This document shows, piece by piece, positions 1-51,650 of a DNA stretch of 64,000 bases. The notes under the pieces are model-generated. The model did no database searches and was not told the DNA's origin. It saw nothing but the letters and a program-made list of their open reading frames with translations. Position 1 is the stretch's first letter; each line of letters opens with the position of its first letter. Source of the stretch: Flectonema sp. DT1601. Its lineage: Eukaryota. The position numbers were made by a program, and so were the translations under genes. The stretch is from assembly GCA_964019425.1 (NCBI GenBank), contig OZ025799.1:1116001-1180000 (forward strand), read 5' to 3'.

Positions 1-675
1 AACTTTTTTTTTTTTTTTTTTTTTAAATGCCTAGTTAAATATTTGTGTCACAGTTCGCATTCGAAGATTCATCAGATTCCCCCTTGTCCAGAAATATTGT
101 TAGAGGGAGGCAGGGAAAAAAGTTAAACAAGGACACCTCAACACACAAATATATAAAAAAAAGAGAGTAATACCGCCTCCTTAACTGGGTGCACAGAAAT
201 GGGAGAAGAAAAACTCTGTTTTTTCCCCCCACTTTTTTTTTTCGTAGGGGAGGGGACGAAAAAATAATGTCCTGAGCCCCTCTATCGTTACTTGTTTGTT
301 TGGATTTTTTATTTTATTTTTTTCTCTTTTATGGTAGTTGCGTAGTCTGTTGTTGGTGAAGCTACAGCTCCCTATTAGAAGTTTCCACCCCGGCATCCCC
401 TCTCCGCAAGTATATCTCTGTGTGAGCTGGGGCATTTAAAAAAAAAAAAAAAAAAAAAGTAAAAAGGAAAGACCGAGGGCATTTTCCTCCCCTCTTGTTT
501 GTTTTTTTTGTGTCCTAATCCCTATATAGTATGTAACCCTGCTTTTTTTTTTATTTTTATTTTTATTTTGTTTGTCTGAATTTTTATGGAAAAAAAAAAA
601 AAGGAGAGATTTAGTTTTGTGTAAACAAATAGAGTATTTTATTAAACAGGTGAGGTTGTGTCAACAACAGACGAA

Positions 676-3600
676 ATGAATACATACACTCAGTTAGTAG
701 CTGTTTTGGTATTTATGCTACAGAGTACCGTTGCAGAAGACAACAGAATGGTCGCCTACGTCGGAAACTGGCAAGCATGTCCGACAACAACACAAACTAA
801 TCAATACACTGAGCTCTTAATTGGTTTCGCTGTCACCTACACCTGGGCCGCTGCGAAGAACAATTGCAACGTCAACTGCGACATCATAACTCCAGTTCCG
901 ATTTGTAATAATGCGGCTAACCCTGGACTTGTATCTCAATGGCAGGCAGCTGGTAAGAAAGTGATTCTCTCATTCGGAGGTGGAGGTATGGGAGGATCGT
1001 GGGATGGTAAGAACGACTGCTGGGAACACTGCTTCGGGAAGGAAGATCACGTCGTCAGTCAACTAAAACAGATTGTCAGAGATCAGAATTTCGATGGAGT
1101 GGATCTCGACTACGAGTATTACTATGAAAATGGTCAAAGAGGGTCTTCCTTCGCAAGAGGTACGGAAGCTCAAAAGTTCATCCGTGACGTGACTACAAAA
1201 CTGAAACAAGAACTTCCAGCAGGTAAACTTGTGACTCACGCACCTATGGATATTGATTTAGTATCTGGGACTGCATACTTTAATATTGTGAAGTCTATCT
1301 CTTCATCAATTGATTTCATAATGCCACAATATTACAATGGTGTTGTTGACTCTGCTGCTAATGGTTTCACTGGTGGAACTACATCAGGGATAGCACACTA
1401 CACAGCTCTTGTGAATGATGCATTCGGAGGAGATGCTACTAAAGTAGTTTATGGATTTTGTATCTCTCAATGTACTCCTGGAACTATTACTGGAGCTGCT
1501 GCTGCTGCTGTAGTTAAGGAAGTGAATACAAACTTTCCTTGTAACGGTGGGGCCTTCTTTTGGGTTGTTAATATGGACACTGGAGCTACTTGGTCAAGTG
1601 CTGTGAATGCTGAGGTTGCAGTCAACAGAGGATGCTCAACAGGAGGCACACAGGCTCCAGCCATTCCAACAACAGCGTCGCCACCAACACCTGTTCCTGT
1701 TCCAAAACCAACAACTACGGAAGATGGCAGAATGGTCGCCTACGTTGGAAACTGGCAGGCATGTCCGACAACAACACAAACTAATCAATACACTGAGCTC
1801 TTAATTGGTTTCGCTGTCACCTACACCTGGGCCGCTGCGAAGAACAATTGCAACGTCAACTGCGACATCATAACTCCAGTTCCGATTTGTAATAATGCGG
1901 CTAACCCTGGACTTGTATCTCAATGGCAGGCAGCTGGTAAGAAAGTGATTCTCTCATTCGGAGGTGGAGGTATGGGAGGATCATGGGATGGTAAGAACGA
2001 CTGCTGGGAACACTGCTTCGGGAAGGAAGATCACGTCGTCAGTCAACTGAAACAGATTGTCAGAGATCAGAATTTCGATGGAGTGGATCTCGACTACGAA
2101 TATTACTACGAAAACGGTCAAAGAGGGTCTTCCTTCGCAAGAGGTACGGAAGCTCAAAAGTTCATCCGTGACGTGACTACAAAACTGAAACAAGAACTTC
2201 CAGCAGGTAAACTTGTGACTCACGCACCTATGGATATTGATTTAGTATCTGGGACTGCATACTTTAATATTGTGAAGTCTATCTCTTCATCAATTGATTT
2301 CATAATGCCACAATATTACAATGGTGTTGTTGACTCTGCTGCTAATGGTTTCACTGGTGGAACTACATCAGGGATAGCACACTACACAGCTCTTGTGAAT
2401 GATGCATTCGGAGGAGATGCTACTAAAGTAGTTTATGGATTTTGTATCTCTCAATGTACTCCTGGAACTATTACTGGAGCTGCTGCTGCTGCTGTAGTTA
2501 AGGAAGTGAATACAAACTTTCCTTGTAACGGTGGAGCCTTCTTTTGGGTTGTTAATATGGACACTGGAGGTACCTGGTCAAGTGCTGTGAATGCTGAGGT
2601 TGAGAAGATTAGAGGATGCTCAACGGGTAGCACGCAGGCTCCAGCCATTCCAACAACAGCGTCGCCACCAACACCTGTTCCTGTTCCAAAACCAACAACT
2701 AAAGAAGATGGCAGAATGGTCGCCTACGTCGGAAACTGGCAGGCATGTCCGACAACAACACAAACTAATCAATACACTGAGCTCTTAATTGGTTTCGCTG
2801 TCACCTACACCTGGGCCGCTGCGAAGAACAATTGCAACGTCAACTGCGACATCATAACTCCAGTCCCGATTTGTAATAATGCGGCTAACCCTGGACTTGT
2901 ATCTCAATGGCAGGCAGCTGGTAAGAAAGTGATTCTCTCATTCGGAGGTGGAGGTATGGGAGGATCATGGGATGGTAAGAACGACTGCTGGGAACACTGC
3001 TTCGGGAAGGAAGATCACGTCGTCAGTCAACTAAAACAGATTGTCAGAGATCAGAATTTCGACGGAGTGGATCTCGACTACGAGTATTACTACGAAAACG
3101 GTCAAAGAGGGTCTTCCTTCGCAAGAGGTACGGAAGCTCAAAAATTCATCCGTGACGTGACTACAAAACTGAAACAAGAACTTCCAGCAGGTAAACTTGT
3201 GACTCACGCACCTATGGATATTGATTTAGTATCTGGGACTGCATACTTTAATATTGTGAAGTCTATCTCTTCATCAATTGATTTCATAATGCCACAATAT
3301 TACAATGGTGTTGTTGACTCTGCTGCTAATGGTTTCACTGGTGGAACTACATCAGGGATAGCACACTACACAGCTCTTGTGAATGATGCATTCGGAGGAG
3401 ATGCTACTAAAGTAGTTTATGGGTTTTGTATCTCTCAATGTACTCCTGGAACTATTACTGGAGCTGCTGCTGCTGCTGTAGTTAAGGAAGTGAATACAAA
3501 CTTTCCTTGTAACGGTGGAGCCTTCTTTTGGGTTGTTAATATGGACACTGGAGGTACCTGGTCAAGTGCTGTGAATGCTGAGGTTGAGAAGATTAGAGGA

Positions 3601-5349
3601 TGTTCTGCATCGACAACAACCGCGCCAACTCCGATCCCAACGCTTGTGCCGACACTCGTACCGACATCAATGCCAACCAGCGTTCCTACTGCTGTGCCAA
3701 CTAACGCACCAACGGCTGTACCTACTGCTGTTCCTACAGCCGTTCCGACTGCAGTTCCGACAATGACACCCACCATGGTGCCAACAGCAGTACCAACGGC
3801 AGTCCCAACCAATGCACCAGGTGCGCCTCCAACAGCTGTTCCAACAGCAATGCCCACGGCAGTTCCAACAGCAATGCCCACAGCAGTTCCGACTGTAGTA
3901 CCAACTGCTGTCCCGACCGCCACTCCGACGGCTGTTCCGACCGCGGTTCCGACTATGGTACCAACGGCAATCCCAACCAATACGCCAGGTGCGCCACCAA
4001 CAGCTGTTCCGACTACGGTACCAACCGCAGTCCCGACCTTAATTCCAACAATGATACCCACCATGATGCCAACAGCAGTACCAACGGCAGTTCCCACGGC
4101 AGTCCCAACAAATACACCAGGTGCGCCTCCAACAGCTGTTCCAACAGCTATGCCTACAACAGTTCCGACTATGGTACCAACGTCTATCCCGACAGCAATC
4201 CCAACAAATACACCGGGTGCGCCTCCAACAGCAGTCCCGACAGCCACTCCGACAGAAGTCCCTACAGCGATGCCGACTGCAGTTCCAACAGCGATCCCAA
4301 CAAATACACCGGGTGCGCCACCAACAGCAGTTCCGACTACGGTACCAACCGCCGTCCCGACCTTAATTCCAACAATGATACCCACCATGATGCCAACAGC
4401 AGTACCAACGGCAGTTCCCACGGCAGTCCCAACTAATACACCAGGTGCGCCTCCAACAGCTGTTCCAACAGCTATGCCTACAGCAGTTCCGACTATGGTA
4501 CCAACGGCTATCCCGACAGCAATCCCAACAAATACACCAGGTGCGCCTCCAACAGCTGTTCCGACGGCAATGCCTACGGCAGTTCCGACTATGATACCAA
4601 CGGCTATCCCGACAGCGATCCCAACAAATACACCTGGTGTACCCCCAACAGCTGTTCCAACAGCTATGCCTACAACAGTTCCGACTATGGTACCAACAGC
4701 TATCCCAACAGCGATCCCAACAAATACGCCTGGTGTACCCCCAACAGCTGTTCCGACTATGATTCCAACGGCTATCCCGACAGCTGTACCGACCAATACG
4801 CCTGGTGTACCCCCAACAGCTGTTCCGACTATGATTCCAACGGCTATCCCGACAGCTGTACCGACCAATACACCTGGTGTACCCCCAACAGCAGTCCCCA
4901 CAGCGATGCCGACCGCAGTAATCCCAACAAATAAACCGGGTGTACCTCCAACAGCAGTTCCTACAGCAATGCCTACAACAGTTCCGACTATGGTACCACC
5001 GACAGCGATCCCAACAAATACACCTGGTGTACCCCCAACAGCTGTTCCGACGACAATGCCTACAGCAAACCCAACAATGGCACCTGGCGTTCCTCCAACA
5101 GAAAACCCAACAGTGGCACCCGACGTTAACGCCAACGGTGCAGGAGGTGCTGATTCGGAAGACGACTCGTCTTTCAACTGGCTTTGGGTAATTATTCCTC
5201 TTCTCATTGTGTTCAGTGCCTGCGGTGCTATCGCCTTCTTCCTGATTCGGAAGAAACAAGATGACCTTTCTCTTACCGACTTCCACGAGCTTATGACAGC
5301 AGAGCCTGACACTGACACTGTGCAGCCTGCGCAGCAGGGAAGGGTTTGA
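676..5349 (+). CDS. Membrane-anchored chitinase-like protein: signal peptide, three near-identical GH18 domains, long Pro/Thr (PTAVP) stalk, C-terminal TM helix
   Basis: GH18 catalytic motif FDGVDLDYE (DxxDxDxE) and KVILSFGG occur three times with a 984-nt period; hydrophobic N-terminus from ATG 676; TM segment [23 protein letters not shown] followed by RKK. Confidence 0.9.
745..3600 (+). repeat. Three tandem ~984-bp intragenic repeats (GH18 domains)
   Basis: AGAATGGTCGCCTAC recurs at ~745, ~1729 and ~2713; units are nearly identical at DNA level. Confidence 0.95.
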
Positions 5350-11733: not shown

Positions 11734-11805
11734 CGCTCCCACTCGGGTTTGAACCGAGGCTGCTGGATTCAAAGTCCAGAGTGCTATCCACTACACCATA
11801 GGAGC
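11734..11805 (-). tRNA. tRNA-Gln (anticodon TTG)
   Basis: Reverse complement GCTCCTATGGTGTAGTGGATAGCACTCTGGACTTTGAATCCAGCAGCCTCGGTTCAAACCCGAGTGGGAGCG folds as a cloverleaf; A/B boxes present; T11 run follows immediately. Confidence 0.95.
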
Positions 11806-12293
11806 CCCCGACCAAATTTCCTTTTTTCTTTTTTTTGGTTACACTCGTCTGTGCTTCCAGACTCTTTGTTTTTGTTCTTTTCACTTCTTTGTTTTGTCTT
11901 TCTTTTATACTTTCTTTTGGTTTAAGTCTGACAAATTGGAAAACACGGGAAACATAGGTAGGCTCCGCCTGAGGACGTAAGAAGAGCGGCAACGGAAAAA
12001 TAAATGGTCACGCGTCCTTGAAATTGGACACACGAAGCTAATTCGGTTACCATTCCTACCATCGATAAGGAAAACAAAGAGTCGAGCATATAACTAGAGC
12101 GGTGGTCAAAGACCACTTGAACAGCCCGAAGGCCTGCCCTCAAGAGAAATTTATAAGGAGAATAGGAGAAGAAGGAGACAGGAGTGTTGGAAGAGACACT
12201 GAGACAACACCGAAGGTGATGTGCAGTTACCCAACCAGGAGATGATTGATAATGATGAAAATACTAAATATTGATAAAACACTTAAATGGCGA

Positions 12294-15200
12294 CTACGTG
12301 TCACCTACACAATTCCAAAGTCTCAGGTTGGATGCTTGTTCCATCCACCTGATCAACATCGCTACCGAAGGAAGCCAGCTGGTGGCAAAGATTGAGCCAA
12401 GACTGGCAGGAATGCCGTTGATGAGGATTAGATCACTTGATCGGTCCCATTTGCCTGTCAATGTAGAAAAGCCAAGGATTTCATATCTGGCTGCATCGAG
12501 TTTCTGTGATGGACAGCCTACGAGTAGGTGGAGTTGGTTGGATGGAGCGCTATGGCAGAATGGACATATGATGGCTTTCCGCCAGTTTTGCATCAGTGGA
12601 TGACACCCCGTTCTAAAATTCGCAATTCTGATTTCATCGCTCCTTTTCATGTCGGGAGGATATTTTATCGCGGCACCTTTGACGGTGTTTTTATAGCAAG
12701 TGTAACCAATTCTGTTCCAAATGTCCTTCGTGATCCCCCTCCTCACTCGGGATTTGTGATAGAAGAAGGATCCTCGGATTGGGATTTGAGGGAGGTATCT
12801 GTTGTGAGCCGATTTCTTAGCAAGCTCATCAACTTCGTCGTGTGCTTCTATCCCCATGTGAGAAGGGATGAATTGAAGATGTACTTTCATACCGCAGTTC
12901 CGTAGGTTCTCGAGGATGCCGAGGGATCTGGTGTTTCTCTGTTTACACCTGCCACCCTTCAACTCGTCCAACAATGATTTTGAGTCGGTATAGATTCTGA
13001 CTGACTTAGTTAGCCCGTCTTTCTGTACCTTCCAGTTTAAGTAGTTTGCCGCATTTTTCAAGGCATGTTGCTCAGTTCTGTAGCTGCAATCCGCACGCAC
13101 TAATCTGGTCGCATGAGCACGTTTCTTTCCGTCTCGTGACCTAGCAATGAGAGCCGCGCCTGACGCATTCAAAGAGTATGAACCGTCACAGTTGATCACC
13201 ATGTCCACCGGAGGAAGTGTCGCGTTGTAGGTAAGGAATTTCTCCCTGTCCACTGCGGGATCAGGGGATTTTGTAAAACCGCAGCTGTTGCTGATTTGAA
13301 CATTGTCCGAAGCAATCCAAGGTTTGATAGAGTCAGGTTGAACGATCCCCACACTTTCTAGTTGACCTTCAGAACGGGGAATGAGGCCACCCCAGAAGCT
13401 TCGAGGCGATGCGAGTGAGTTGGTGTCCGGCACCCAGGTCATGGCTTTGTACCTGAAATAGGCAATTTTAGTCTGCTTTTCGATTTGTCTTTTAAACGGT
13501 AAGATGTCGGCTTCCCAAAGGAGCAACTCCCTCGGAGTACATCTGCTGCATCCTGTTACGAGTCTCGCTATTTTTCTCATCTCGAAGTCGATAGCATCCG
13601 TTTTATGCTGGTTGAGCAACCAACCAAAGCTGTCCAGTGCATAGGAAATCCTCGCTGTCACGTACAAGTTTTTAACCATCTTTAGGGTCTTGTAGTCCAA
13701 TTCATATGGCTGGAGGCACTGCAGAAGGGAGATCCCTTTCTTCAGTTCGTCGTGTATTTTCTCTAACTGTTTATCAAACCTGAGCCTGTTATCAATGTAA
13801 ACACCCAGATATTTCACTGAGTCCGTGATCGGCAGTAGGAAGGCAATTTTAATTTTCGCTTTGACATTCATCTCGTCGTGGATGTTCAACATCAGTAAAT
13901 CTTCTAATTCTTGTTGAGTCCTGATGGGTTTCCCCTCTACTTCGAGGATCGTTTCACCACTCAGTAAAGTGGGCCTTGTCGTCGTCGTGATGATCACGCT
14001 GTCTAGATCAAAATAGTCAATATCTAACGAACGTACTTCCAGTGATTTTGAGAATAAGAGTTCGCGGTCGCTAGTATCAGTCAGGGTTACTTCTTTCGAT
14101 TGAATATCCATTTTCAGAGCGCAAGTCTTGGAGACTGAAAGTGCCATGTCATTATCACGGCACCACTTGTCAACGATGTCAAGTATTCGTTGAGCGTTTG
14201 AGATTGCTTCGTCCATGGTCGAGCCAAATACTGCACAAGCGGTGTCGTCTGCATACAGTGCGGTCAAAGTCGTTTCCTTCTCTTGTGAGAGAATCTTACA
14301 CAGATCGTCAACATATATTAAATAGAGTAGTGGGCCTAAGATTGATCCTTGAGGCACTCCTTTTGACAGCGTACGAAACTTACTGAAATGTCCATTTGCA
14401 TCAACTCTGACCTTCCTATTGGTTAGAAAGTCCGTTATCCATCGAACGATGAAGGTTGGGATGCCCATTCTTTGTAGTTTTGAAAGTAAAATTCGATGGT
14501 TAATCCTATCGAAGGCAGCTGTGAAATCGAATGACAAGAAGACTGACCTCCTCCCCTTCGTGTGGTTGTTTACCATGGCGTCCACCAGAATTGTGATTTG
14601 TTCGCAGGTATTTCTGCCCCGTCTGAAGCCAGCTTGAATCGGACTGAGTGCTGAGTTTTCGGTAAGCCAATGCATGAGCCTGTCGTACACCAACCTCTCA
14701 GCCAGTTTGCCAACAACCGAAGTGAGTGTGATTGGTCTGTAGCTTTTAATATCGTTCCGCGGTTTGCCCGACTTGAACATCGGTTTGATTAACCCCTGTT
14801 TCCAAAGATATGGAACATTGGAGGATCTCCACGAAGAATTGATCACCTTTAATAAACAGTCAACTGCCTTCTGAGATAAGTTCTTAAGCATTTCGTTGTG
14901 AATACCGTCAGGGCCTGCTGCTTTGCGAGGCTTCAGGTTTTTAATTGCTGCTGATATCTCGGTATCTGTGAAGTCACAACAGATGTCCAATTCCAAGTCT
15001 TCTTTCTCCAATGAAGGGGCTTCGAGTTTAGCAGCATCCCCATCGGCCACAAAGAGGTCCAGAAATGCTGCAGGTAAATCGTTCTCAGATATATTTGATA
15101 CGCTGATGTCCTTACCAGCGTCCTGTTGGAGTTCTTTAATCTTCTTGAAGGCGAAGTTAAAGTTGTTCCCCTTCTTCAGTTGGTCTTTCAGGTGACTGCC

Positions 15201-16274
15201 TTTTGATTTTAGAGATTCCGGTGAAGAGATCTTCCACTTACGTCGGCGCTTGCCCTTAAATAAGATTCTCCTCCGCACGTTCCTCGCAGCTACTTCATGT
15301 ATTATGTTATTTAATAATCCAACATTACCAGTGGCATCATCCGAGAACTTAGCCCTATCAATTCTTCTATCAAGTTGCTGTCTGAAAGCACTCCAGTTTG
15401 TAGATTTGAAATCCCAGACAGTTCGTTTCCTTGCTCCAACTGTTGCTTGAGAGAGGTGAGCCATTGTGTCGAAGATAGCGAGTAGAGGTCGATGATCCGA
15501 GTTATGTTTACTGTCTTCATTTATGATTGAAAATTCTTCTAATACAATTGATCCTTTGAAGAATATAACGTCAGGTGAGGTACCACCACCAGGAATGTCG
15601 TGTTTGGGCCGAGTTATTTGACCAGGTCTGTTTGCTACGAGAACGTCATTGCGATCCGCCCAATTAAATAATTCTTTACCAGATTTGGTTGTCCTGGTAG
15701 ACCAGACGAGGTTGTGTGCGTTGAAGTCGCCCGCAATAATAGACTTCGTTGTGATCGGAAGATCATCTTCTCTAATGATACACCCAGGGGGAGCGTAAAC
15801 GTTAATAACATTGACACCACCAACATTCAACATCATAGCTTCGATACCGCTTGTTCTCGAAAACAATTCTTCATCACTGATTCCTTGTGAGAAGCATCTC
15901 TTTGCCATTATTATAATGCCACCACCTTTTGTATTTCTGTCCTTCCTATATGTATAATAGCCAGGGTGCGAAATGTGTTCCTTCGACCAGGTTTCCTGTA
16001 AGCACAGTACATCCGGCGAGTAGTGAGAAAGGAGTCTTTGAATATAAGACCCCTTCTGACTTATCGATCTACAGTTCCAGCTCAACACTGAGAGTAACGA
16101 ATTTTCAGGTCCAGGGTTGCGTTCAACGTCGCCTGCCAGCAGTAATAAACTTCGGGTCAGTTCTTTTTCAGTTTGAGAGATAGTCGGTGCTGTTACAGTA
16201 GTCGGCTTCACCAGAACTTTACTATGATGTGCGTCATTTTTAGAATTTGAAGTTGACGGTGTTCGTTTGTCAAG
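12294..16274 (-). CDS. Copy A ORF2: 2A peptide, apurinic endonuclease, reverse transcriptase, RNase H, CCHC; no initiator AUG, in frame with ORF1
   Basis: LLLAGDVERNPGP; SWNCRS, LCLQETW, GDFNAH, SDHRPL (APE); KAAGPDG, YRPITLTS, QAGFR, GVPQGSILGP, YADD, KYLGV (RT); INCDGS, YTDSKS, FIPSH (RNase H); CPFC...HLLVGC. Confidence 0.93.
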   Translation of the reverse strand, partial: LDKRTPSTSNSKNDAHHSKVLVKPTTVTAPTISQTEKELTRSLLLLAGDVERNPGPENSLLSVLSWNCRSISQKGSYIQRLLSHYSPDVLCLQETWSKEHISHPGYYTYRKDRNTKGGGIIIMAKRCFSQGISDEELFSRTSGIEAMMLNVGGVNVINVYAPPGCIIREDDLPITTKSIIAGDFNAHNLVWSTRTTKSGKELFNWADRNDVLVANRPGQITRPKHDIPGGGTSPDVIFFKGSIVLEEFSIINEDSKHNSDHRPLLAIFDTMAHLSQATVGARKRTVWDFKSTNWSAFRQQLDRRIDRAKFSDDATGNVGLLNNIIHEVAARNVRRRILFKGKRRRKWKISSPESLKSKGSHLKDQLKKGNNFNFAFKKIKELQQDAGKDISVSNISENDLPAAFLDLFVADGDAAKLEAPSLEKEDLELDICCDFTDTEISAAIKNLKPRKAAGPDGIHNEMLKNLSQKAVDCLLKVINSSWRSSNVPYLWKQGLIKPMFKSGKPRNDIKSYRPITLTSVVGKLAERLVYDRLMHWLTENSALSPIQAGFRRGRNTCEQITILVDAMVNNHTKGRRSVFLSFDFTAAFDRINHRILLSKLQRMGIPTFIVRWITDFLTNRKVRVDANGHFSKFRTLSKGVPQGSILGPLLYLIYVDDLCKILSQEKETTLTALYADDTACAVFGSTMDEAISNAQRILDIVDKWCRDNDMALSVSKTCALKMDIQSKEVTLTDTSDRELLFSKSLEVRSLDIDYFDLDSVIITTTTRPTLLSGETILEVEGKPIRTQQELEDLLMLNIHDEMNVKAKIKIAFLLPITDSVKYLGVYIDNRLRFDKQLEKIHDELKKGISLLQCLQPYELDYKTLKMVKNLYVTARISYALDSFGWLLNQHKTDAIDFEMRKIARLVTGCSRCTPRELLLWEADILPFKRQIEKQTKIAYFRYKAMTWVPDTNSLASPRSFWGGLIPRSEGQLESVGIVQPDSIKPWIASDNVQISNSCGFTKSPDPAVDREKFLTYNATLPPVDMVINCDGSYSLNASGAALIARSRDGKKRAHATRLVRADCSYRTEQHALKNAANYLNWKVQKDGLTKSVRIYTDSKSLLDELKGGRCKQRNTRSLGILENLRNCGMKVHLQFIPSHMGIEAHDEVDELAKKSAHNRYLPQIPIRGSFFYHKSRVRRGITKDIWNRIGYTCYKNTVKGAAIKYPPDMKRSDEIRIANFRTGCHPLMQNWRKAIICPFCHSAPSNQLHLLVGCPSQKLDAARYEILGFSTLTGKWDRSSDLILINGIPASLGSIFATSWLPSVAMLIRWMEQASNLRLWNCVGDT

Positions 16275-17699
16275 TCAGTTTGAATTATCCATTTCCACAT
16301 CAGTCGTTTCAGTAGTATCGGTTGGTTCTTCAGCACAGTGTCGCTTCAGATCACCAGATATAACTGGACCCTTGCCCGGGTTGAAGGTCGGCCCCAATTT
16401 GACCGGCTTTTCTCTTTTAGTTTCCATGTTGATTACAAGGTACGCATCTTTACCCATGTCGACGAAGCTTGGTGATGGAACCGATTCAGAGATTGCAATT
16501 AACGTTTTGTTGCCTCCCTTATGAAAACTAGCCACAATTGTGTGACTCCACTTGTATGCGTGCAACAGGTGATCGCTGATCTGTTGCGTCGTGAACTTCT
16601 TAATAGCCAGTGATTTAATTATAAAACGCTGACCAGTCGGCAGTGCGGGTTTCAGAGAATCCCCGAGTGATTCTCTCACTTTTTGAGTAAACCCGGGTTG
16701 AACTTTCAGCCCAAAGCACTCTCGGAACTTCGTGATGTAGAAGCTACCTTTGATTGCTGAAAGAACTGAAAGTTTGCCCAGCACCGCTTTGAAGCCCAAG
16801 TCCTTAACGAACTGAACTGTGTTCCAAGAGTCTTGGCCATTAGACCAAGATGGGTTTCTGATGAATAGATCTCTCTTCTCACTGGAGGTGTCGCTGTTGT
16901 TGTATTCCAGAATTTCAGAAATTCTGAAGTTTGGCACACGGATCGCCATAGATGTGTGCATATCGCATTTTTTAAATCCGAAGGGCGATGTCTTCAGCTC
17001 CCACTTTTTAATTAATTCTTTCACCTTAGTGGTGAGAGTGCTCTCTGCTGATTTACTCCAGTCTTGTACGAATAGAACTGGGTCTGGCTGTGGTGGCTCG
17101 ATGGCGTCTTCTCTTGCGGCAGTGAAATCTTTGCCACAAATCGGGGTGACAAATACCCTACGAATGACGCAGGTTCCGCACTTCTTTACGACTGGAAGTG
17201 CGACTGGGACTGTTGTTTTAAACAGTTTAGACTTTGAGATGGCAGTCCAGTCGCCCTTCGTTCGTGTTTGCTTCAGTGCTTCATAATCAGCCTTTGAGCT
17301 GATGAGCACGAGTCCGTCCGCGTTGTTTTTGGAGGCATCGATTGCTTCTGAGAATTTAAGCGTAGGTGTTGCTTTAGCCCACGCTGCGTGAATGTACCAC
17401 TCTGGCAGAGTGGGTTTCTTGTTGTTGGTAGTTGGTGTCGGGCCTCCATCATTTCCATCCCTCACCGTGCTCGCCGCTTCCTGTCGTTGTCCCCCGGACT
17501 CCTTCCCCTTCCTCTCTTGCTCTGTCGTCTTTCTCTTTGACGACTCTCCTTGTTTCTCTCCGGAGTCCTCCGTCAGCTGCTCCAGCACTCTCATCGTGAG
17601 AGTCAAAACCCTCCTTCTCTTTTCTTCTCCTGCTAGTCCTTTCTCCACTTCTTGTACTAGCCGCATCACATCCAAAAGCAGCTCCTTACAACTGCTCAT
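16275..17699 (-). CDS. Copy A ORF1 protein (no recognised domain)
   Basis: Long open frame from ATG 17699; clearly homologous to copy B ORF1 (PEWxIHxAWA, TVPVALPVxKK, VLFxQDW, RNPSWSNG, VASFHKGG, LGPTxNPG). Confidence 0.85.
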   Translation of the reverse strand: MSSCKELLLDVMRLVQEVEKGLAGEEKRRRVLTLTMRVLEQLTEDSGEKQGESSKRKTTEQERKGKESGGQRQEAASTVRDGNDGGPTPTTNNKKPTLPEWYIHAAWAKATPTLKFSEAIDASKNNADGLVLISSKADYEALKQTRTKGDWTAISKSKLFKTTVPVALPVVKKCGTCVIRRVFVTPICGKDFTAAREDAIEPPQPDPVLFVQDWSKSAESTLTTKVKELIKKWELKTSPFGFKKCDMHTSMAIRVPNFRISEILEYNNSDTSSEKRDLFIRNPSWSNGQDSWNTVQFVKDLGFKAVLGKLSVLSAIKGSFYITKFRECFGLKVQPGFTQKVRESLGDSLKPALPTGQRFIIKSLAIKKFTTQQISDHLLHAYKWSHTIVASFHKGGNKTLIAISESVPSPSFVDMGKDAYLVINMETKREKPVKLGPTFNPGKGPVISGDLKRHCAEEPTDTTETTDVEMDNSN

Positions 17700-17763
17700 T
17701 ATAGTTTTATGTCTGTCAGAAAACCCGCACAAAATCGACTCTCACCAGGTAATGGTAGGAAAT

Positions 17764-17779
17764 CAATAAAGTACAGAAA
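17764..17779 (-). other. Spliced-leader 3'-end remnant at the 5' end of copy A
   Basis: Minus strand TTTCTGTACTTTATTG matches the diplonemid SL exon 3' end as I recall it (kinetoplastids: TTTCTGTACTATATTG); preceded by five extra TCTGTACT units. Confidence 0.8.
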
Positions 17780-18682
17780 GTACAGAAGTACAGAAGTACA
17801 GAAGTACAGAAGTACAGATTTCCTTTTTTCTTTCTGTCGTTCGAACGTAGATTTTCTTTCTTCTTCTCCTTCATTTTCCCACGGTACCCCAATCTTCCTG
17901 TCGCTTCATGGTTCCACGTGATCCTTTCTCCAGCTCCTTGGCTCCGATGATTTTGGTTCCTTTTTTCTATCCGATTCGCCAGCCACTATGTGCGCTTTAC
18001 TTCAAGGGTAGCATCATCATGTTGCTTATTGCCCCGAACCGCTACCACCCGCGTAGGTTTGCATTTCCAGGGGTCCCTCCGATAGGTCTCCCCCGTGATC
18101 CATTCTAGTGCCAGTTCTAATGCACGTAGTACGGGATCCTTTTCCTCTCGTGTGGCCTCATGCCACTTTTTTCCACTGCGCCTCCTACTCTCGCGCTCTC
18201 TCGTCCGTGCACAGCTTCTTCACCTTCCCAGCGTAGCACCTGCAGTGAGGTTTCACTCCATGTGCTGTACGTTCCACATGGGACCGCGTACCGCCGATCC
18301 CTGCGTGCCCTTTAACGTCTTGTCCGCTGGCTTGTACTCCGGGTCAGTGCCTGAGGAAAGCCTCCGCCCCCGCCTCCTCTCCATTATTGAAATCCTGGTA
18401 TACATCGCACGAGAGTCCCCTTTTTTCGGGGTGGCATAGAGCTTGAACTTGCTCTTCACTCGCGTCGCCAGTTTACTCCTTGTTGTGTCCGCCCGTATTG
18501 TGCTACGAGCTGCGTTCTTCTTCTCACACCGACCAAGCGACCTCCATGTTGCCTGTGGAACTTCACTCTGTACCGGTGACTTAACGATACCGTCGTAGAG
18601 TTTTTTACTACGTTTATACCGTTTAAAGGATAAATTCCTATGTTTGTGACCCTTTCCTATTTTAGTTTCACAGAGTAATATA

Positions 18683-37684: not shown

Positions 37685-38864
37685 GGAGGTTATAGAAAGT
37701 CTTAAGCTACTCTAACGCCTTCAGTTTGGTCGATCCATTCTTATCACACAAACAGTTAACAATCTAAAGGAGTCATGAGGGATCACTACTACCGTAGTGA
37801 ACTGTTCCTATGTTGGAATTGATTAGCAGTTCTGACAGAAGTCTTTACTTAAGGTCTGCCACCTCATGCTCTGCAATTGCTCCACCTTCTGGAGATCAAG
37901 AACCCTTTAAAGAGCAGGATCTTTTCCTCTGTCGAAAGACTTTGGGGGATTCGCTGTTTGTCTTCGATTGCTTTGATTCTGTTCCTCTTCGTCGGGATTT
38001 TTTCATGCAAACGAACGTAGTTTCAAAAGAGAGATGTTCTGATTCGTCTGAACTGACGAGTTTTTCTTTTTTTCACTTCTTTTTTCCTCTCTTCCTTGCC
38101 CTCCTTTTGTCATCAAAATCTTTACGTGAAATCATTTTTAGAGGTTGAAATTTTTTTTATCCCACTTGAACCTTTTTCTTTCGTTCTTTCAGATTACAAA
38201 AATGAAAATACTCTGATTACAAGTGCAGTTGGAGAAAACATTACTTTGTGGATTTGTTCAGTAGCGTGAACAGAGGTAGAGAAGGTTTCCGTGTAGCAGT
38301 TGGACATAGGGCAAGTGTAATTTTCACCTCAAATAGACATCATGTACTCTTAACTTTTAATTTACTTTTCAGGATGTAATGTAGGCCTTTGAAACAACAT
38401 CAGCAACAGCATGCAAGCAATTCTGATGCACTGACCCAAGTGATAAAGATTTCCTAAAAAATCGTGCCTGCAAGAGTCCATTTCTTAAAAGGTCTTGTAG
38501 ATCCTTCTCCGCATATTCTTTGCAAAGAAAAAACAGCTGCCACTTTTTTTCTGTGGCGTTCCTGGCGAAACCTACACTCTGCCGTATTACATTATACCCC
38601 TGGTTTTGGTTTCCCAGGGCTCACGATTAATTCGTAATTGAATAACTCGATTTCGTACTGCACTGAATGACTATAACACGGAAAAAGAGACATGTATGCA
38701 GATAAGTTAGAAACATTGATTATAATGTAGAGCAAGTACGGAGTGTTATTTTAGTCACTGTGTCATGAGTTTTTAATATTATTATTGAGTTCTGAGAGAT
38801 TTATATTTGTATGAACCTAATCAAACAAAAAGCCAATTGACATAGCTGTTGAAAAGAAAAAAAG

Positions 38865-38936
38865 CAACCGTGGCAGGACTCGAACCTGCAACCGCCTGAT
38901 CCGTAGTCAGGCGCTCTTCCATTGAGCCACACGGTC
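38865..38936 (-). tRNA. tRNA-Arg (anticodon ACG)
   Basis: Reverse complement GACCGTGTGGCTCAATGGAAGAGCGCCTGACTACGGATCAGGCGGTTGCAGGTTCGAGTCCTGCCACGGTTG folds as a cloverleaf; T7 run downstream. Confidence 0.95.
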
Positions 38937-39451
38937 AATAAATGGAAAAAAGCTTTTCTTTTTTTTTTTTTTTTTTGGTTACACTCGTCTGTGCTACCAA
39001 ACTCTTTGTTTTTGTTCTTTTCACTTCTATGTTTTGTCTTTCTTTTATACTTTCTTTTTGACTTAAGTCTGACAAATTGGAAAACACGGGAAACATAGGT
39101 AGGCTCCGCCTGAGGACGTAAGAAGAGCGGCAACGGAAAAAATAAATGGTCACGCGTCCTTGAAATTGGACACACGAAGCTAATTCGGTTACCATTCCTA
39201 CCATCGATAAGGAAAACAAAGAGTCGAGCATATAACTAGAGCGGTGGTCAAAGACCACTTGAACAGCCCGAAGGCCTGCCCTCAAGAGAAATTTATAAGG
39301 AGAATAGGAGAAGAAGGAGACAGGAGTGTTGGATGAGACACTGCGACAACACCGAAGGTGATGTGCAGTTACCCAACCAGGAGATGATTGATAATGATGA
39401 AAATACTAAAAATAATAACAAATTGATATTGGCGACTACATGTCACCTACT

Positions 39452-42400
39452 TTATTTCCAAAGTCTAAGGTTAGATGTCTGTTCCATCCACCTTATGATC
39501 AACGCGAGTGATGGAAGCCACGCCAAAGTGAAGAGAGCTTCAAGGTTAGGAATTTCGTTGGCAATAATAAGTTCCCGGTCGCGATCCCACTTGCCGGTCA
39601 GTGTTGAGAAGCCCAGGATTTTGAACCTGGCCGAATCGAGTTTGGGAGATTGACATCCCTGCAGCAGGTGAACCTGTGAGGACGGTTCGCCACAAAATGG
39701 GCAGTCGATCGTCTTGCGCCAGTTCTGAATTAGCGGGTGACATCCTGTCCGGAAGTTCGCTATCCGTATCTCGTCGGCTCTTTCCATCCCAGGAGGGTAT
39801 TTAACGGAACGGCCTCCGATGAGGTGCTTGTAGCAAGTGTAACCACTCACGTTAAGAAGATCTTTTTTGATGCAGCGCTTAACATGAGATGATCGCGAGA
39901 AGTACGTGCCTTTGACTAGCACAGGACGGATGTTCTTGTTGTGTGCTGCTTCCTTTGCAAGCGCATCAACTTCATCGTGAAATCCGATTCCAATGTGCGA
40001 GGGGATGAATTGCAGATGCACTTTCATTTCACACATGCGCAGGTATTCCAGTATCTTCAAGGACTCAGTGTTCTTCTGTCTGCACCTTCCACCCAGCAGT
40101 TCATCCAGAAGGGATTTTGAGTCCGTGAATATCCTCACAGATTTCATTGAAGTATCTTTGCTAAACACTGTTCTCAGATGTCTAGCCGCGTTCTTCAGAG
40201 CATGTTGTTCAGCCCTGTAGCTGCAGTCAGCTTGATAAAGCCTAGACGCGTAAGCAGATCGAAGGCCGCTACGTGACTTGGCAATATGAGCCGCACCGGC
40301 CGCGCCGGAAGCAGAGTAGGAGCCATCGCAGTTGATTACCATGTCGACAGGAGGTAACGTTCCAATGTACGACATGAATTTTTCTTTGTCCACCGCAGGG
40401 TTCGCGGACTTCGGAAATCCGCAGCCGTTGCTAATCCTAAGGTTTGTCGGAGATACCCAGGGTTCCATCGAGTCAGGCTGCACAAGGCACTGGCTTTCTC
40501 GCTGACTATCAGTGCCAGGGATTAGGCCAGCCCAGTAGCTTTGTGTTGAGGCGAGTCTGTTTGTATTAGGTATCCAAGTCATGGCTTTATACCTGTAGTA
40601 CGCAATTTTTGTCTGCTTTTCAATCTGACGTTTAAAAGGATACATGTCAGACTCCCACAACAGTAACTCTCTTGGCGTACACTTGCTGCATCCAGTAACC
40701 AGTCTGGCGACCTTCCTCAGTTCGAAGTCGATGCTGTCAACGCTGCTGCTTATCAGCCAACCAAAACTGTCAAGCGCATATGAGATTCTTGCGGTTACAT
40801 AAAGGTTCTTAACCATGTTAAGAGTCTTGTAGTCCAGTTCGTACGGCTGGAGGCACTGCAGAAGTGATATCCCCCTCTTTAATTCTTCGTGAATCTTGCC
40901 TACTTGTTTGTGGAAGGTGAGCCTGTCGTCGATGTGAACTCCGAGGTATTTTACTGAGTCGACTATCGGTAACAGAAAGGCAGTTTTGAATATTGCTCTC
41001 ACAACCATAATGCTGTCCTCACGAACGACGTATTGCAGCATCAAGTTGTCGAGTTCTTCTTGTGTCTTGATTGGGATTCCTCCAATTTCAAGAATCGTTT
41101 CGCCACTTTGAAGCATGGGTCTGGGTGATTTGAGATTGATATGATTCTCGATGTCACCATAGTCAAGTTTAAGCATGCGTTCCTCAACAGATCTAGAGAA
41201 AAGCAGTTCGCGATTACACGTATCGTTTAGTACTATGCCCTTCGAGCGAACATTCATCTTAAGCGCACAGGTTTTGGAGACCGATAAGGCCATGTCGTTT
41301 TCAAAACACCATTGATCCACTTTGTCGAGTACTAACTGAGCATTCGAAAGAGCTTCTTCCATGTTTGATCCTGACACCACACATGCTGTGTCATCCGCAT
41401 ACAGAGCAGACGTCGTTGTTTCCTTCTCCAGTTCCAAAATCTTGCAGAGGTCATCAACGTAGATAAGATAAAGAAGAGGACCCAGGATCGATCCCTGGGG
41501 AACCCCCTTAGCCAGAGTACGGAATTCGCTAAAATACCCATTCGCTTCAACTCTAACCTTCCTGTTTGTAAGAAAGTCTGTGATCCATCTGATAATAACA
41601 TTCGGAACACCCATCTTTACTAATTTTAATAAAAGTATCTTATGGTTGATCCTGTCAAACGCAGCAGTAAAGTCGAATGACAAGAACACTGATCTCTTTT
41701 CTTCCATGTGGCTCCTTACGATAGCATCTACTAGAACGGTGATCTGCTCGCAGGTATTTCTCCCCTTTCTGAATCCAGCCTGTAGTGGACTGAGCGACGA
41801 ATGTTTTGTGAGCCAGTGCATGAGTCGGTCATACACGAGCCTCTCCGCAAGTTTCCCAACAACCGAGGTGAGCGTTATTGGTCTGAAACTCTTTAGTTCA
41901 TTACGAGGTTTCCCTGCCTTGAACATGGGCTTGATTAGTCCCTGTTTCCATTGGTACGGTACTTTTGAAGTCTTCCAAGAAGTGTTAATAATTCTCAAGA
42001 GGTATTCCACTGTTGCCGGAGTGAAGTTTTTGATCATCTCATTGTGAACTCCATCAGGTCCTGCAGCCTTGCGGGTCTTCAGGTTCTTAATCGCAGCTTT
42101 AATTTCAGCCATTGTGAAATCACAGCAAATATCTATTTCATTATCACCTTCTGAGAGTGCGGGGGCCTCTAGCGATAATATTTCCGATTTCGAGACAAAC
42201 ATGTCCAAGAATGCTGATGGGAGATCGCAGTCAGAGATGTTGTTGACACTGATATCTTTACCAGCATCTTGCTGCAGTTCTTTGATCTTCTTAAACGCAA
42301 AGGCAAAGTTGTTACCCTTGTCAAGTTGATCACGTAGGTGGACACCCTTCGATTTGGTAGAATCAGGGGTTGACGTCTTCCACTTTCGTCTCCGTTTCCC

Positions 42401-43363
42401 TTTGAAAAGGAGACGTCGACGAATGAATTTAGCCGCCACTTCATGCAGTATGTTGTTAAAGAGCTTGGCATTCGCAGTTGCATCATCGGAGAGTCTTGAT
42501 TTTCTAATTCTCTTTTCGAGCATGGTCCCAAAGCAGTTCCAGTCCGTAGACTTGAAGTCCCATACAACGCGTTTCTTCGAACCTATCGTGGCCCGTGCAA
42601 GTTGGCACATGGGATCCAGTACGGTGTAGAGAGGTCGATGATCTGACCCATGTTTATTATCTTCTTCAATTGCACTAAATTCTTCAAGAACCATCGAGTT
42701 TGAAAAGAATACTACATCTGGCGAGGTACCACCCCCCGGGACGTCAGGAAAAGGCCTTGTGATTGACCCCATCTTGTTAGCAACCAGTAGATCATTTTGG
42801 GCTGCCCATGCATGTAGAGTTGAACCTGCTCTCGTCGATTTAAGTGACCACACCGGATGATGGGCATTAAAGTCACCCGCGACGATTGCTTTCGTTGAGA
42901 CTGGAAGATCTGACTCTCTGATCATGCATCCCGGGGGAGCATAAACATTGATGATGTCAATCTTTCCACCTATGTTGACCTTCACGACCTCGACATCATT
43001 TAAGTGTGGCGGAAGCTCCATGTTCAAACGCTGCTGAGTGTGGCATTTTTTCACCATAGAAATAACCCCTCCACCTCGTGTTGCCCTATCATTCCGATAG
43101 GTGAAATAGTCCGTGTGCGAAATTACATCATTCGTCCAAGTCTCCTGTAGGCACAGTACGTCAGGCGCATAGGCATTTAGCAGCTTGTGAATATAAGCGC
43201 CTTTGTTCCCCATCGATCGACAGTTCCAGCTCAGTAGAGATATGAGAGAGTTGTCAGGGCCAGGGTTGCGTTCGACGTCGCCTGCCTTTAGCAGCAGTTC
43301 ACGAGCCGTATCCTTTTCCACAAGTGAGTTGGTCGGACTGAGTTCATCCTCATCGTCATCTAG
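39452..43363 (-). CDS. Copy B ORF2: 2A peptide, APE, RT, RNase H, CCHC; no initiator AUG, in frame with ORF1
   Basis: LLLKAGDVERNPGP; SWNCRS, GDFNAH, SDHRPL; GVPQGSILGP, YADD, KYLGV; INCDGS, FTDSKS; CPFC...HLLQGC. Confidence 0.93.
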   Translation of the reverse strand, partial: LDDDEDELSPTNSLVEKDTARELLLKAGDVERNPGPDNSLISLLSWNCRSMGNKGAYIHKLLNAYAPDVLCLQETWTNDVISHTDYFTYRNDRATRGGGVISMVKKCHTQQRLNMELPPHLNDVEVVKVNIGGKIDIINVYAPPGCMIRESDLPVSTKAIVAGDFNAHHPVWSLKSTRAGSTLHAWAAQNDLLVANKMGSITRPFPDVPGGGTSPDVVFFSNSMVLEEFSAIEEDNKHGSDHRPLYTVLDPMCQLARATIGSKKRVVWDFKSTDWNCFGTMLEKRIRKSRLSDDATANAKLFNNILHEVAAKFIRRRLLFKGKRRRKWKTSTPDSTKSKGVHLRDQLDKGNNFAFAFKKIKELQQDAGKDISVNNISDCDLPSAFLDMFVSKSEILSLEAPALSEGDNEIDICCDFTMAEIKAAIKNLKTRKAAGPDGVHNEMIKNFTPATVEYLLRIINTSWKTSKVPYQWKQGLIKPMFKAGKPRNELKSFRPITLTSVVGKLAERLVYDRLMHWLTKHSSLSPLQAGFRKGRNTCEQITVLVDAIVRSHMEEKRSVFLSFDFTAAFDRINHKILLLKLVKMGVPNVIIRWITDFLTNRKVRVEANGYFSEFRTLAKGVPQGSILGPLLYLIYVDDLCKILELEKETTTSALYADDTACVVSGSNMEEALSNAQLVLDKVDQWCFENDMALSVSKTCALKMNVRSKGIVLNDTCNRELLFSRSVEERMLKLDYGDIENHINLKSPRPMLQSGETILEIGGIPIKTQEELDNLMLQYVVREDSIMVVRAIFKTAFLLPIVDSVKYLGVHIDDRLTFHKQVGKIHEELKRGISLLQCLQPYELDYKTLNMVKNLYVTARISYALDSFGWLISSSVDSIDFELRKVARLVTGCSKCTPRELLLWESDMYPFKRQIEKQTKIAYYRYKAMTWIPNTNRLASTQSYWAGLIPGTDSQRESQCLVQPDSMEPWVSPTNLRISNGCGFPKSANPAVDKEKFMSYIGTLPPVDMVINCDGSYSASGAAGAAHIAKSRSGLRSAYASRLYQADCSYRAEQHALKNAARHLRTVFSKDTSMKSVRIFTDSKSLLDELLGGRCRQKNTESLKILEYLRMCEMKVHLQFIPSHIGIGFHDEVDALAKEAAHNKNIRPVLVKGTYFSRSSHVKRCIKKDLLNVSGYTCYKHLIGGRSVKYPPGMERADEIRIANFRTGCHPLIQNWRKTIDCPFCGEPSSQVHLLQGCQSPKLDSARFKILGFSTLTGKWDRDRELIIANEIPNLEALFTLAWLPSLALIIRWMEQTSNLRLWK

Positions 43364-45022: not shown

Positions 45023-45080
45023 AATTGCTTTTTCCTGTGAAACGTACCCACTGATTCTTACCAATATTAGGTTGCGAAAT

Positions 45081-45096
45081 CAATAAAGTACAGAAA
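45081..45096 (-). other. Spliced-leader 3'-end remnant at the 5' end of copy B
   Basis: Minus strand TTTCTGTACTTTATTG, followed by ATTTC as in copy A. Confidence 0.8.
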
Positions 45097-45181
45097 GCAA
45101 GATGGATGCGACAAAAAGCTTTTCATTTTGTCGCATCCATCTTGTATATCTCTCATTTAGCTTTTTTTAAAAAAAAATAAA

Positions 45182-50000: not shown

Positions 50001-50928
50001 AGACGAGGCGAAACGGAGTGAAGCAGACTTACCTGCTCAAGACACGAGAGTTTACACGGATGGGTCGATAAGACACAAGTCTAAGACCTACATGACGAAT
50101 GCAGCTGCTGCTGTGGTTATAGTAGACAAAGGCAAGACGTGTCTACTTGGATACAAAATACCGGTGGCGGGTTCCTCCTACAGGACTGAACAGATCGCTG
50201 TAAAATTGGCGATGGAGAATCTTGTTCAAGCAGCGAAGGAGGAACGAGAATGTCCGACAGCAACGACGCACCTGTTGACTGATTCGATGTCAGTCATGCA
50301 GGCATTGGAACAAGGACCATACAAACAAAGGTCCCCAATGAATAAAGACATCTGGAAGTTAGCTATGAAGCTAGAGAGGAAGGGTGTACAAATTAACGTA
50401 CAGTATGTGCCAGCGCACAGAAATGTACGATACAATGAAGTAGCAGACCAGATTGCGAAGTATGCAGCAGGCCTGAAGGATGATCCACCTTATAAGGATG
50501 TAATTATTAAACAACTACCCGCTCAACTTGATATGGGAACGATGATGACCTTCCACAAGCGGAGAAAACGGGAGAACTGGTTAGGGCCAGGAGAGGTAAG
50601 GCACCCTCCATACATTGATGAGCTCACCAGACCGGAAGAAGTGATCATGTCACGCTTTAGAGTGGGACACTGCAGATCCTTGAAACTCAAGGGACAAAAT
50701 GAGAAATGCATTTTCTGTAAAGATGCAAGGGCAACACCACATCATGTGGCCTTATTATGTGAACACTGGTGCGTGGAATTCTTAAGAGACAAGTACATCG
50801 ATCCTATGATAAACGAAGAAGGAGAAGAACCATGTTCTCTAGAAGACTGTTACTTACCGAATAACCAACGAAGGATGTTAAACTTTGTCACTGCCTTGGA
50901 CGAACTAGCAGTACTAACAGGAAGGTAA
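47008..50928 (+). CDS. Copy C ORF2 (APE-RT-RNase H-CCHC) interrupted by one in-frame TAG at 49855-49857
   Basis: LLQETWL, GDINGH, SDHQPL; KAPGPD, GVPQGSVLGP, FADD, RYLGV; after the TAG the same frame stays open into VYTDGS, TDSMS, YVPAH, NEVAD and CIFC...H...C. Confidence 0.85.
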
Positions 50929-51439
50929 TCTTATAATCGACAAATGTCAAGATCAAGACCGCAGCCTACAAGACTAGGAAGTACTGATGGCAATTTAGCA
51001 ACACATCCGAAGACGTCCAAGTGGACAATTTACTCTGTAGTATTAGTTTTAAGTTATCAAAACAAAGAAAGGAGATACGAAGCCTACGGGATCCCCACCC
51101 CCAACCCCCAAAACAAAGAAAGTAAGAAAGAAAGAAAGAAAAAGAACAACCGCGCCTAACAGCGCAATCAGCATCACAGACTCACGGGTCGTGGTGCACA
51201 CAAAAAAAAAAAATTTTTTATTTTCTGAGCATGCTCTCAGTTTACTCTCAGTTTACAGTATTGACTTGTTTAACTTCAGCTGAGTGCTTTTGTCAAAGAA
51301 CGACGTCATCCGATACCGGAATGCATTGATGCAGCGCTGATGTACATTCGAAAGGGAACTATTGGTGAAATTATTGAGAAAGCAAGAATCTCTAAGACTG
51401 CACGTACTTACGGCAGTCCAATGTGATTGCGATTTACTT

Positions 51440-51650
51440 GGTGAGAGTCCCGTACATCTGAGCAGCCATCCAGTCTACCTTCACAGTCAGCAAGAGTCGC
51501 TCAGTTTGGGAATGCTGAGCTAATTGGCAGGTATTCCTCTGCTAAGGCTAAATATCTCCCGGAGACCGATAGCGAACAAGTACAGTGATGGAAAGATGCA
51601 AAGAACTTTGAAAAGAGGGTTAAAAGTCCCTGAAACCGGTGAGTGGTAAG
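51440..51650 (+). pseudogene. Isolated fragment of cytosolic LSU (28S) rRNA, D1-D2 junction; may extend to ~51770
   Basis: GGTGAGAGTCCCGT...GAGTCG...TTTGGGAATGC...GCTAAATAT...GAGACCGATAGCGAACAAGTACAGTGATGGAAAGATGCAAAGAACTTTGAAAAGAG is the conserved eukaryotic LSU block. Confidence 0.88.

Follow-up and report, generated by a model that had tools for sequence, protein, structure and literature searches.

A spliced-leader relic as the putative inherited 5' end of tRNA-adjacent non-LTR retrotransposons in the diplonemid Flectonema sp. DT1601

Non-LTR retrotransposons of hosts with polycistronic transcription and universal trans-splicing require a 5' end that escapes being spliced off. In L1Tc, the RNA 5' end is made by the Pr77 ribozyme (PMC3383444, PMC8190864), and the related Ingi elements are described as having a single ORF and no ORF1 (PMC3708506). 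A different association with the spliced leader (SL) is found in CRE, SLACS and CZAR, whose endonuclease is an RLE and whose insertion sites are SL genes (PMC12278014). SL sequence can also be carried by retrocopies: the relic SLs of dinoflagellates (DinoRLs) start just after the internal AG of the SL because a new SL was spliced there (PMC12014239). Finally, the tRNA-upstream elements of dictyostelids lie at a fixed distance from tRNA genes (PMC5006619).

Two elements, A and B, were examined on the minus strand of the window, the whole 64,000-nt stretch of contig OZ025799.1 (positions 1,116,001 to 1,180,000) that was analyzed, and their features are listed in Table 1. They are tRNA-adjacent APE-type non-LTR retrotransposons, and with slightly better than even confidence we regard their 5' end as a once-captured, inherited relic of the host SL, with a predicted hairpin and a defined RNA 5' end. 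They are a real feature and represent a variant of APE-type LINE, with a life cycle that can be proposed from the structures described below. No description of an element of this kind was found in the literature searched, which lay outside Repbase and the subscription journals.

Table 1. Positions in the window of the features of elements A and B and of their surroundings, with the SL-bearing loci of the viral collection
Feature	Positions	Strand	Basis or remark
Element A, 5' TSD copy, 16 bp	17818..17833	-	identical to 11816-11831
Element A, five extra SL cores between TSD and relic, 38 nt	17780..17817	-	sequence; 8-nt period
Element A, relic, 16 nt (SL 24-39)	17764..17779	-	sequence match
Element A, predicted hairpin over SL|element junction	17724..17777	-	-18.3 kcal/mol, z -4.19, 0/200 shuffles as stable
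Element A, putative acceptor-like AG after pyrimidine run	17713..17714	-	13 nt before ORF1 ATG
Element A, ORF1, 474 aa	16275..17699	-	no Pfam family; ends with TGA in frame with ORF2
Element A, ORF2	12294..16274	-	2A-like motif (16107-16133), APE, RT, RNase H, C-terminal Cys/His motif
Element A, poly(A) tail and 3' TSD copy	11816..11836	-	
tRNA-Gln(TTG) gene	11734..11805	-	10 bp past A's TSD, same strand
Element B, 5' TSD copy, 12 bp	45113..45124	-	identical to 38947-38958
Element B, one C and 15-nt inverted copy of flank (45130-45144), between relic and TSD	45097..45112	-	
Element B, relic, 16 nt	45081..45096	-	sequence match
Element B, predicted hairpin over SL|element junction	45043..45092	-	-14.0 kcal/mol, z -3.34, 3/200 shuffles as stable
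Element B, putative acceptor-like AG after pyrimidine run	45035..45036	-	12 nt before ORF1 ATG
Element B, ORF1, 552 aa	43364..45022	-	no Pfam family; 44% identity with ORF1 of A; TGA in the frame of ORF2
Element B, ORF2	39452..43363	-	2A-like motif (43256-43282), APE, RT, RNase H-like region
Element B, poly(A) tail and 3' TSD copy	38947..38976	-	
tRNA-Arg(ACG) gene	38864..38936	-	10 bp past B's TSD, same strand
SL-bearing viral loci L165-L167, L171, L174, L176, L179			237-kb IMG/VR contig
SL-bearing viral locus L170			GVMAG contig
SL-bearing viral locus L175			

The families PF14529, PF03372 and PF00078 scored above the cut-off in both elements, identifying an APE and a reverse transcriptase (RT). 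PF00075 itself gave no match in A or B at an E value of 0.01, and the RNase H was recognized from the C terminus of A's ORF2, which aligned with the PF00075 domain of a third element of the window, C, with an E value of 8e-18; PF00075 is also precomputed for Flectonema relatives. The 2A-like motif GDVERNPGP was located upstream of the APE in ORF2 of both elements. These features, together with the poly(A) tail and the euglenozoan host, are shared with Ingi and L1Tc, as are the place of the 2A-like motif just upstream of the APE and a structured 5' signature, about 75 to 80 nt in front of the first ATG, which likely sets the RNA end. In contrast to Ingi and L1Tc, an ORF1 of its own, closed by a TGA in frame with ORF2, is present in each of A and B, their signature is SL-derived with no HDV fold found by the searches described below, and their insertion is tRNA-adjacent. 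As ORF1 is absent from Ingi elements, membership of the Ingi clade is not claimed.

In a quick RT tree of 50 rows, built without labeled reference Ingi elements, the RTs of A, B, Flectonema and protein P0036 (of a third family) grouped together (SH-aLRT 98), then with that of element C (96), beside unnamed RTs bearing a 2A motif (86). The nearest named relatives were from Flectonema neradi, with distant ones for ORF1 from Diplonema papillatum, which points to a diplonemid host. The ORF1 clusters contained 18 and 20 variants and the ORF2 clusters 37 and 101. With clusters of this size, and with A's ORF1 recurring unchanged on 7 contigs, the families are taken to be young and active; 5'-truncated copies were present among the cluster members. 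One protein, P0027, corresponded to a 5'-truncated B copy joined to part of a 3' UTR from the same family, which suggests a template jump or a nested insertion. In the contigs of one sequencing run (X1, share 0.05), only scraps of ORF2 and 3' regions were found, covering neither 5' junction.

Beyond the ORF1 value given in Table 1, identity between A and B was about 67% in ORF2, 67% at the 3' end of ORF2 and 63% in the UTR beyond the relic. The 3' UTRs (11838-12290 and 38976-39440) were 94% identical, against 67% in ORF2, and this likeness of sequence suggests a 3'-end exchange. Both 3' UTRs also contain 47 nt able to form a hairpin, which match positions 51770-51816, within a fragment of LSU rRNA, at 96% identity in reverse orientation. 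At the end of ORF1, the TGA is followed by CT (16275-16277 and 43364-43366), in frame with ORF2, and the 2A-like motif follows 27 to 47 codons on. TGA-CT is presumably a stop-codon read-through context, and ORF2 expression might be controlled by read-through combined with StopGo.

Both elements open with a 16-mer that corresponds to exactly SL positions 24 to 39, beginning directly after the internal AG of the SL and ending at its last base, and followed directly by ATTTC. The preliminary description had reported the 3' 16 nt of the SL, followed by ATTTC, at the 5' end of both copies, with the ORF1 AUG about 60 nt downstream and no AG at the SL|ATTTC junction. All three points were confirmed, the ATG being 64 nt (A) and 58 nt (B) from the 16-mer; the description gave no strand and mentioned neither the sequences between relic and TSD nor the adjoining tRNA genes. 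Even when 2 mismatches were tolerated, the window held no match other than these two. No further 3'-anchored SL match of at least 9 nt was present in the 64 kb, and only one other 11-mer of the 39-nt SL (taken from locus L007) was found, within the repeat array of A. Among published SLs, the conserved end of the T. brucei mini-exon equals the first 15 nt of the 16-mer (PMC11613528), the 16-mer preceded by AG makes up the partial SL printed for B. nonstop (PMC12153298), and the core recurs after CAG in a piece of a prokinetoplastid SL (PMC7859406). The SL exon of D. papillatum is 39 nt long and is present on essentially all mRNAs (PMC10161547). No diplonemid SL sequence was found in print in the literature searched.

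The 16-mer was also detected at a minimum of 120 loci in metagenome contigs, and the counts that follow are among the matches listed. At 107 of the 120 it lay within 30 nt of the contig 5' end, and the preceding base was G in all 104 of these that had one. Of the 13 contig-internal matches, the SL match extended over 20 to 28 nt in 4, 17 to 18 nt in 4 and 16 nt only in 5; the last, all in GC-poor contigs, are probably due to chance. Since 4 of the 13 ran to 20 to 28 nt, SL position 24 is no general stop for retrocopies. No relatives of 10 element proteins occurred at the 120 SL-bearing loci listed, of which 40 had only about 300 nt of flank, and no ORF1 relatives were found in metagenome contigs.

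The identification of the 16-mer as a euglenozoan SL 3' end is thus well supported at the level of sequence, by the printed kinetoplastid SLs and the metatranscriptome-type contigs. The preliminary description had gone further and named it as the end of the diplonemid 39-nt SL exon; we take it that diplonemids share this end, and that the 16-mer is presumably the host's own SL sequence. The 5' ends are pyrimidine-rich, and their T-rich make-up could by itself produce a resemblance to the SL, just as chance alone places the 16-mer in unrelated GC-poor contigs once a collection is very large. Such an origin can practically be dismissed, given a 16/16 match that ends at the last base of the SL, its place at the 5' terminus of three copies in a euglenozoan host, and the 0.16 matches expected by chance in the window, even with 2 mismatches, against the 2 observed.

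Several of the metagenome loci contained tandem SL forms. Locus L099, in a euglenozoan-type contig, reads CAG+16+16. At L065 and L091, the SL is joined to a second SL from its sixth base, ahead of two different genes, which may be a library artifact, and L138 has slipped repeats upstream of its relic. Judged by their sequences, these forms suggest a recycling of relic SLs in Euglenozoa. The relics of A and B resemble DinoRLs in consisting of the SL part 3' of the internal AG. They differ in that DinoRLs are found on retrogenes of the host and build up as tandem series, whereas the relic of A and B is on an autonomous element, single, without an upstream AG of its own, and in a conserved predicted hairpin.

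The insertion sites of A and B had a common layout. Both TSDs end 10 bp upstream of a tRNA gene on the same strand, with the 3' end of the element facing the tRNA, and at the gathering threshold Rfam recognized only these two tRNAs and the LSU fragment in the window. A third tRNA-adjacent site may be represented by P0208, a spurious ORF on another contig in which a B-type 3' end and poly(A) are followed by a stretch fitting tRNA A and B boxes 44 nt apart, as read from the peptide. The pattern looks like tRNA-gene targeting in a diplonemid, which would add tRNA-upstream targeting to what elements of Euglenozoa are known to show. A fixed distance upstream of tRNA genes is shared with Dp_NLTR-A, Pp_NLTR-B (with RNase H), TRE5, DGLT-A and yeast Ty3, although those systems belong to other hosts and involve no SL, and A and B are set apart by the 10-bp spacing of the TSD from the tRNA and the orientation of the element toward it.

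The flanks also bear on the relation to CRE, SLACS and CZAR, with which A and B have in common that SL sequence adjoins a non-LTR element in Euglenozoa. The preliminary description had held that the flanks are not SL RNA genes and that the case is unlike insertion into SL arrays. Both statements agree with what was found: the flanks hold tRNA genes, the enzyme encoded by A and B is an APE, and their SL piece falls between the two TSD copies. It could still be supposed that master copies reside at the exon end of SL RNA genes, as CRE-clade elements insert in SL genes (PMC12278014), and use the SL promoter, with A and B being off-target progeny that carry part of the host exon. Off-target copies of melanogaster-type R1 do carry 7 to 28 bp of upstream 28S sequence (PMC2718515), but these lengths are variable where the relic is fixed, A and B use an APE rather than an RLE, and A, B and the peptide-read third locus all end just upstream of tRNA genes. 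We therefore consider SL-gene masters very unlikely.

The sequences between relic and TSD give an indication of how the 5' ends were made. In A, this interval is filled by iterated SL cores that are not present in the 3' copy of the target, and it probably arose by slippage of the RT at the template end, although the array could instead have grown by DNA slippage after insertion. The cDNA would have reached U24 or U25, its terminal A's would have re-paired on U33-35, and the core would have been recopied five times. In B, the inverted copy of the flank would be explained by snap-back synthesis at integration. Non-templated and locally templated additions have been described at the full-length 5' junctions of R1 and R2 (PMC2718515).

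A third copy was sought with an antisense ORF that runs from the 5' UTR of A through the junction, yielding one relative among one candidate. This ORF, P0211, is a spurious antisense frame on another contig and reads KSIKYRKYRK. An SL of 17 to 39 nt and a 16+16 tandem were rejected for it, as all of these predict N after IKYR. The peptide fits the 16-mer plus one iterated core, with a chance probability of about 6e-5 for a peptide rather than a DNA reading. SL position 24 was therefore the start in 3/3 readable full-length copies (A, B and P0211; n = 3), G23 was left uncopied in all nine inferred passes (6 in A, 2 in P0211 and 1 in B), and no new-SL bases were seen upstream of the relic in the three DNA-encoded copies. 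A 16+16 tandem, as would result from ongoing re-splicing at a retained CAG, was rejected for all three. A fixed boundary at SL 24 in these copies is well supported by the sequences, and the RNA template presumably ends at U24. The preliminary description had proposed that a variable remnant would suggest re-acquisition and a fixed one inheritance; the remnant length was fixed, and this speaks for inheritance rather than for chance partial copying of a trans-spliced RNA.

A hairpin across the SL|element junction was predicted for both elements by folding the first 57 to 58 nt of each and comparing the result with 200 shuffles (Table 1). The helix common to A and B comprises 8 bp, from A36 to U+4, with 16/16 cells paired. 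Between the two sequences compared, three helix pairs differ on one side (A/G opposite U) and none on both sides, and the outer GUAC helix contains a fourth one-sided change. The first 21 nt paired best with the UTR, with 0/580 and 0/599 other element windows better and 1 and 18 of 1,000 shuffles as good. For the SL 16-mer alone, no significant pairing with the UTR was obtained (63 and 323 of 1,000 shuffles as good), and the signal requires ATTTC. In a 150-nt fold of A, SL 24-35 of the outer helix prefers a site in ORF1. The base of the helix lies 2 to 4 nt from U24, and the helix would bury G39|A+1. Taken as a structural model, these data are suggestive of a conserved junction hairpin in A and B.

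Both UTRs contain a donor-like GGTRAG, for which the roles of mini-intron and SL-RNA mimic were weighed and dropped; it is explicable by structure alone, because it lies in the inner stem. No Rfam ribozymes were detected at the element 5' ends, where searches at E values up to 10 returned only sub-threshold hairpin matches, and a home-made HDV descriptor, run without a positive control, gave 0 matches.

The UTR arm of the hairpin is complementary to both sides of the junction, and this complementarity could allow the RT to jump from the 5' end of the element (ATTTC) to a free SL exon held by the arm, and to drop off at U24. Non-templated additions are known at template run-off in R2 (PMC2718515). 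Examination of 60 proteins, restricted to open-frame junctions, however, yielded 7 truncated copies that begin with foreign in-frame sequence, all of them lacking an SL peptide at the junction, and the fixed stop at U24 would be unaccounted for. Such a jump was judged very unlikely indeed, if anything a shade below the SL-gene masters.

On the reading that we favor, inheritance, an SL-capped element RNA would originally have been retrotransposed along with the CAG of the SL, and its transcript would have been re-spliced at that CAG, as in the dinoflagellate relic SLs, fixing the 16 nt as element sequence. Today, an element copy would be transcribed by read-through, and its RNA would be cut or trimmed to U24 at the hairpin base by some activity. 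Target-primed reverse transcription would start 22 to 26 bp upstream of the tRNA gene, and the RT would run off at U24, often slip onto U33-35 and recopy the core, and then join the target. A second RNA, capped with the SL, would serve for the translation of ORF1. Both UTRs contain a pyrimidine run with CAG 13 nt (A) and 12 nt (B) before the ATG, and an AG at SL|ATTTC would be unnecessary because the ORF1 mRNA would be spliced at this site. The preliminary description had found the life cycle puzzling, as a copy without AG at the junction could not be re-spliced there; the puzzle would be resolved if the putative downstream CAG gives an SL-capped ORF1 mRNA.

Inheritance is supported by the relic boundary lying exactly after the AG of the SL, as in the dinoflagellate relics and L099, by the constancy of this boundary in three copies, by G23 staying uncopied where some metagenome matches run on, by the junction helix common to A and B, by the youth and activity of the families, and by the truncated copies being free of SL peptides. 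It explains most simply why the boundary is fixed and coincides with the AG, why repeats arise at run-off, why no acceptor is present and why the junction is buried. An alternative raised in the preliminary description was an SL mimic that became a heritable 5' signature. The heritable part of this is favored, whereas mimicry is not, the piece being the exact SL part 3' of the internal AG with the look of a re-spliced relic. Counting most against inheritance, the relic is 16/16 identical to the SL in both families beside a UTR of only 63% identity, and even the unpaired U24-26 are unchanged, as refreshing from SL RNA would give. The pairing signal that needs ATTTC, the one-sided helix changes, the competing site in ORF1, the negative ribozyme searches and the peptide basis of the third copy also weigh against it.

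These last observations are what would be expected if the SL were re-acquired in each cycle, the element RNA being trans-spliced at ATTTC and the SL then trimmed or the RT blocked at U24. The acceptor would be supplied by unseen AG|ATTTC masters or by a non-canonical TG from the old relic, perhaps with the complementary arm of the UTR guiding the SL. Besides the perfect SL identity despite deep divergence of the adjoining UTR, the junction lies exactly at the SL 3' end, the UTR differences in the helix are all on the element side, and for the relics of dinoflagellates a TG has been suggested to act as a non-canonical acceptor (PMC12014239). Re-acquisition, however, needs a stop that coincides with the internal AG in 3/3 copies, while other DNA relics reach beyond U24. 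With AG masters alone, all SL-headed progeny would be dead ends, yet the SL hairpin is kept in A and B, and a TG acceptor would be buried by the predicted helix. Because SL identity is perfect beside a UTR that is not, re-acquisition with trimming is retained as a possible, if rather unlikely, explanation. Under the inheritance that we favor, the A/B family points to a 5'-end solution other than Pr77, made from the host's own leader, and its repeat junctions would be a record of RT behavior at the template end.

DNA-encoded SL exons were also encountered in a viral collection, in which the 16-mer was present at 44 loci and a whole 39-nt SL-like exon at 7 loci on 3 contigs. A wider SL pattern gave 18 loci, including nine SL copies on one 237-kb IMG/VR contig. 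On this contig, AAAA(A/T)TGA, which we take to be the mimivirus early promoter motif, starts 26 to 27 nt upstream of 9/9 SL copies, compared with 34/2700 background windows, and an ORF starts 34 to 75 nt downstream in 9/9. Four of the nine copies end in T, not G. The same order of motif, SL and ORF was observed on a GVMAG-labeled contig, and a third contig carried the SL without the motif. Genes neighboring the viral SL copies included Bro-N, ankyrin and PNK3P, with no confirmed hallmark gene among them, and a search for capsid families, covering one-third of the viral records, gave no match, as was also the case for the controls. The SL-bearing IMG/VR contigs are likely to be giant viruses whose genomes carry the host leader ready-made where transcripts begin, a phenomenon of which no account was found in the literature searched. 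Only a single DNA virus of euglenozoans is known according to PMC8061765. A DNA-encoded SL at a likely transcription start thus exists in probable euglenozoan parasites, which is a precedent for A and B and not evidence on them.

A more far-reaching interpretation, which we consider doubtful, is that a LINE lineage of diplonemids took over the 3' half of the SL and made it its own 5' signature. The fold would define or self-generate the RNA 5' end, replacing the Pr77 HDV ribozyme, the RT would add telomerase-like repeats, and, together with the viral SLs, a genome-encoded SL would be a recurring strategy of euglenozoan parasites. The domesticated signature would then possibly be an unrecognized self-cleaving RNA or a guide for AG-independent trans-splicing.

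Other features of the window were recorded. Element C (45182-51213, plus strand) is a third APE-RT-RNase H element, in head-to-head arrangement with B. Its frame is interrupted by a TAG at 49855-49857, and it has neither an SL relic nor a 2A motif. No relationship was detectable between its ORF1 and those of A and B, and the only TSD candidate found was a poly(A)-like one of 10 bp. It is followed by a degraded piece of LSU rRNA (51265-51907). At 646-5349 on the plus strand, an intronless frame of 1,567 codons encodes a protein with a tandem series of three GH18 chitinase-like domains and a long PT repeat, anchored in the membrane by its C terminus. Arrays of a 75-nt (25-codon) repeat lie within long reading frames at 53649-55523 and from 57142 onward.
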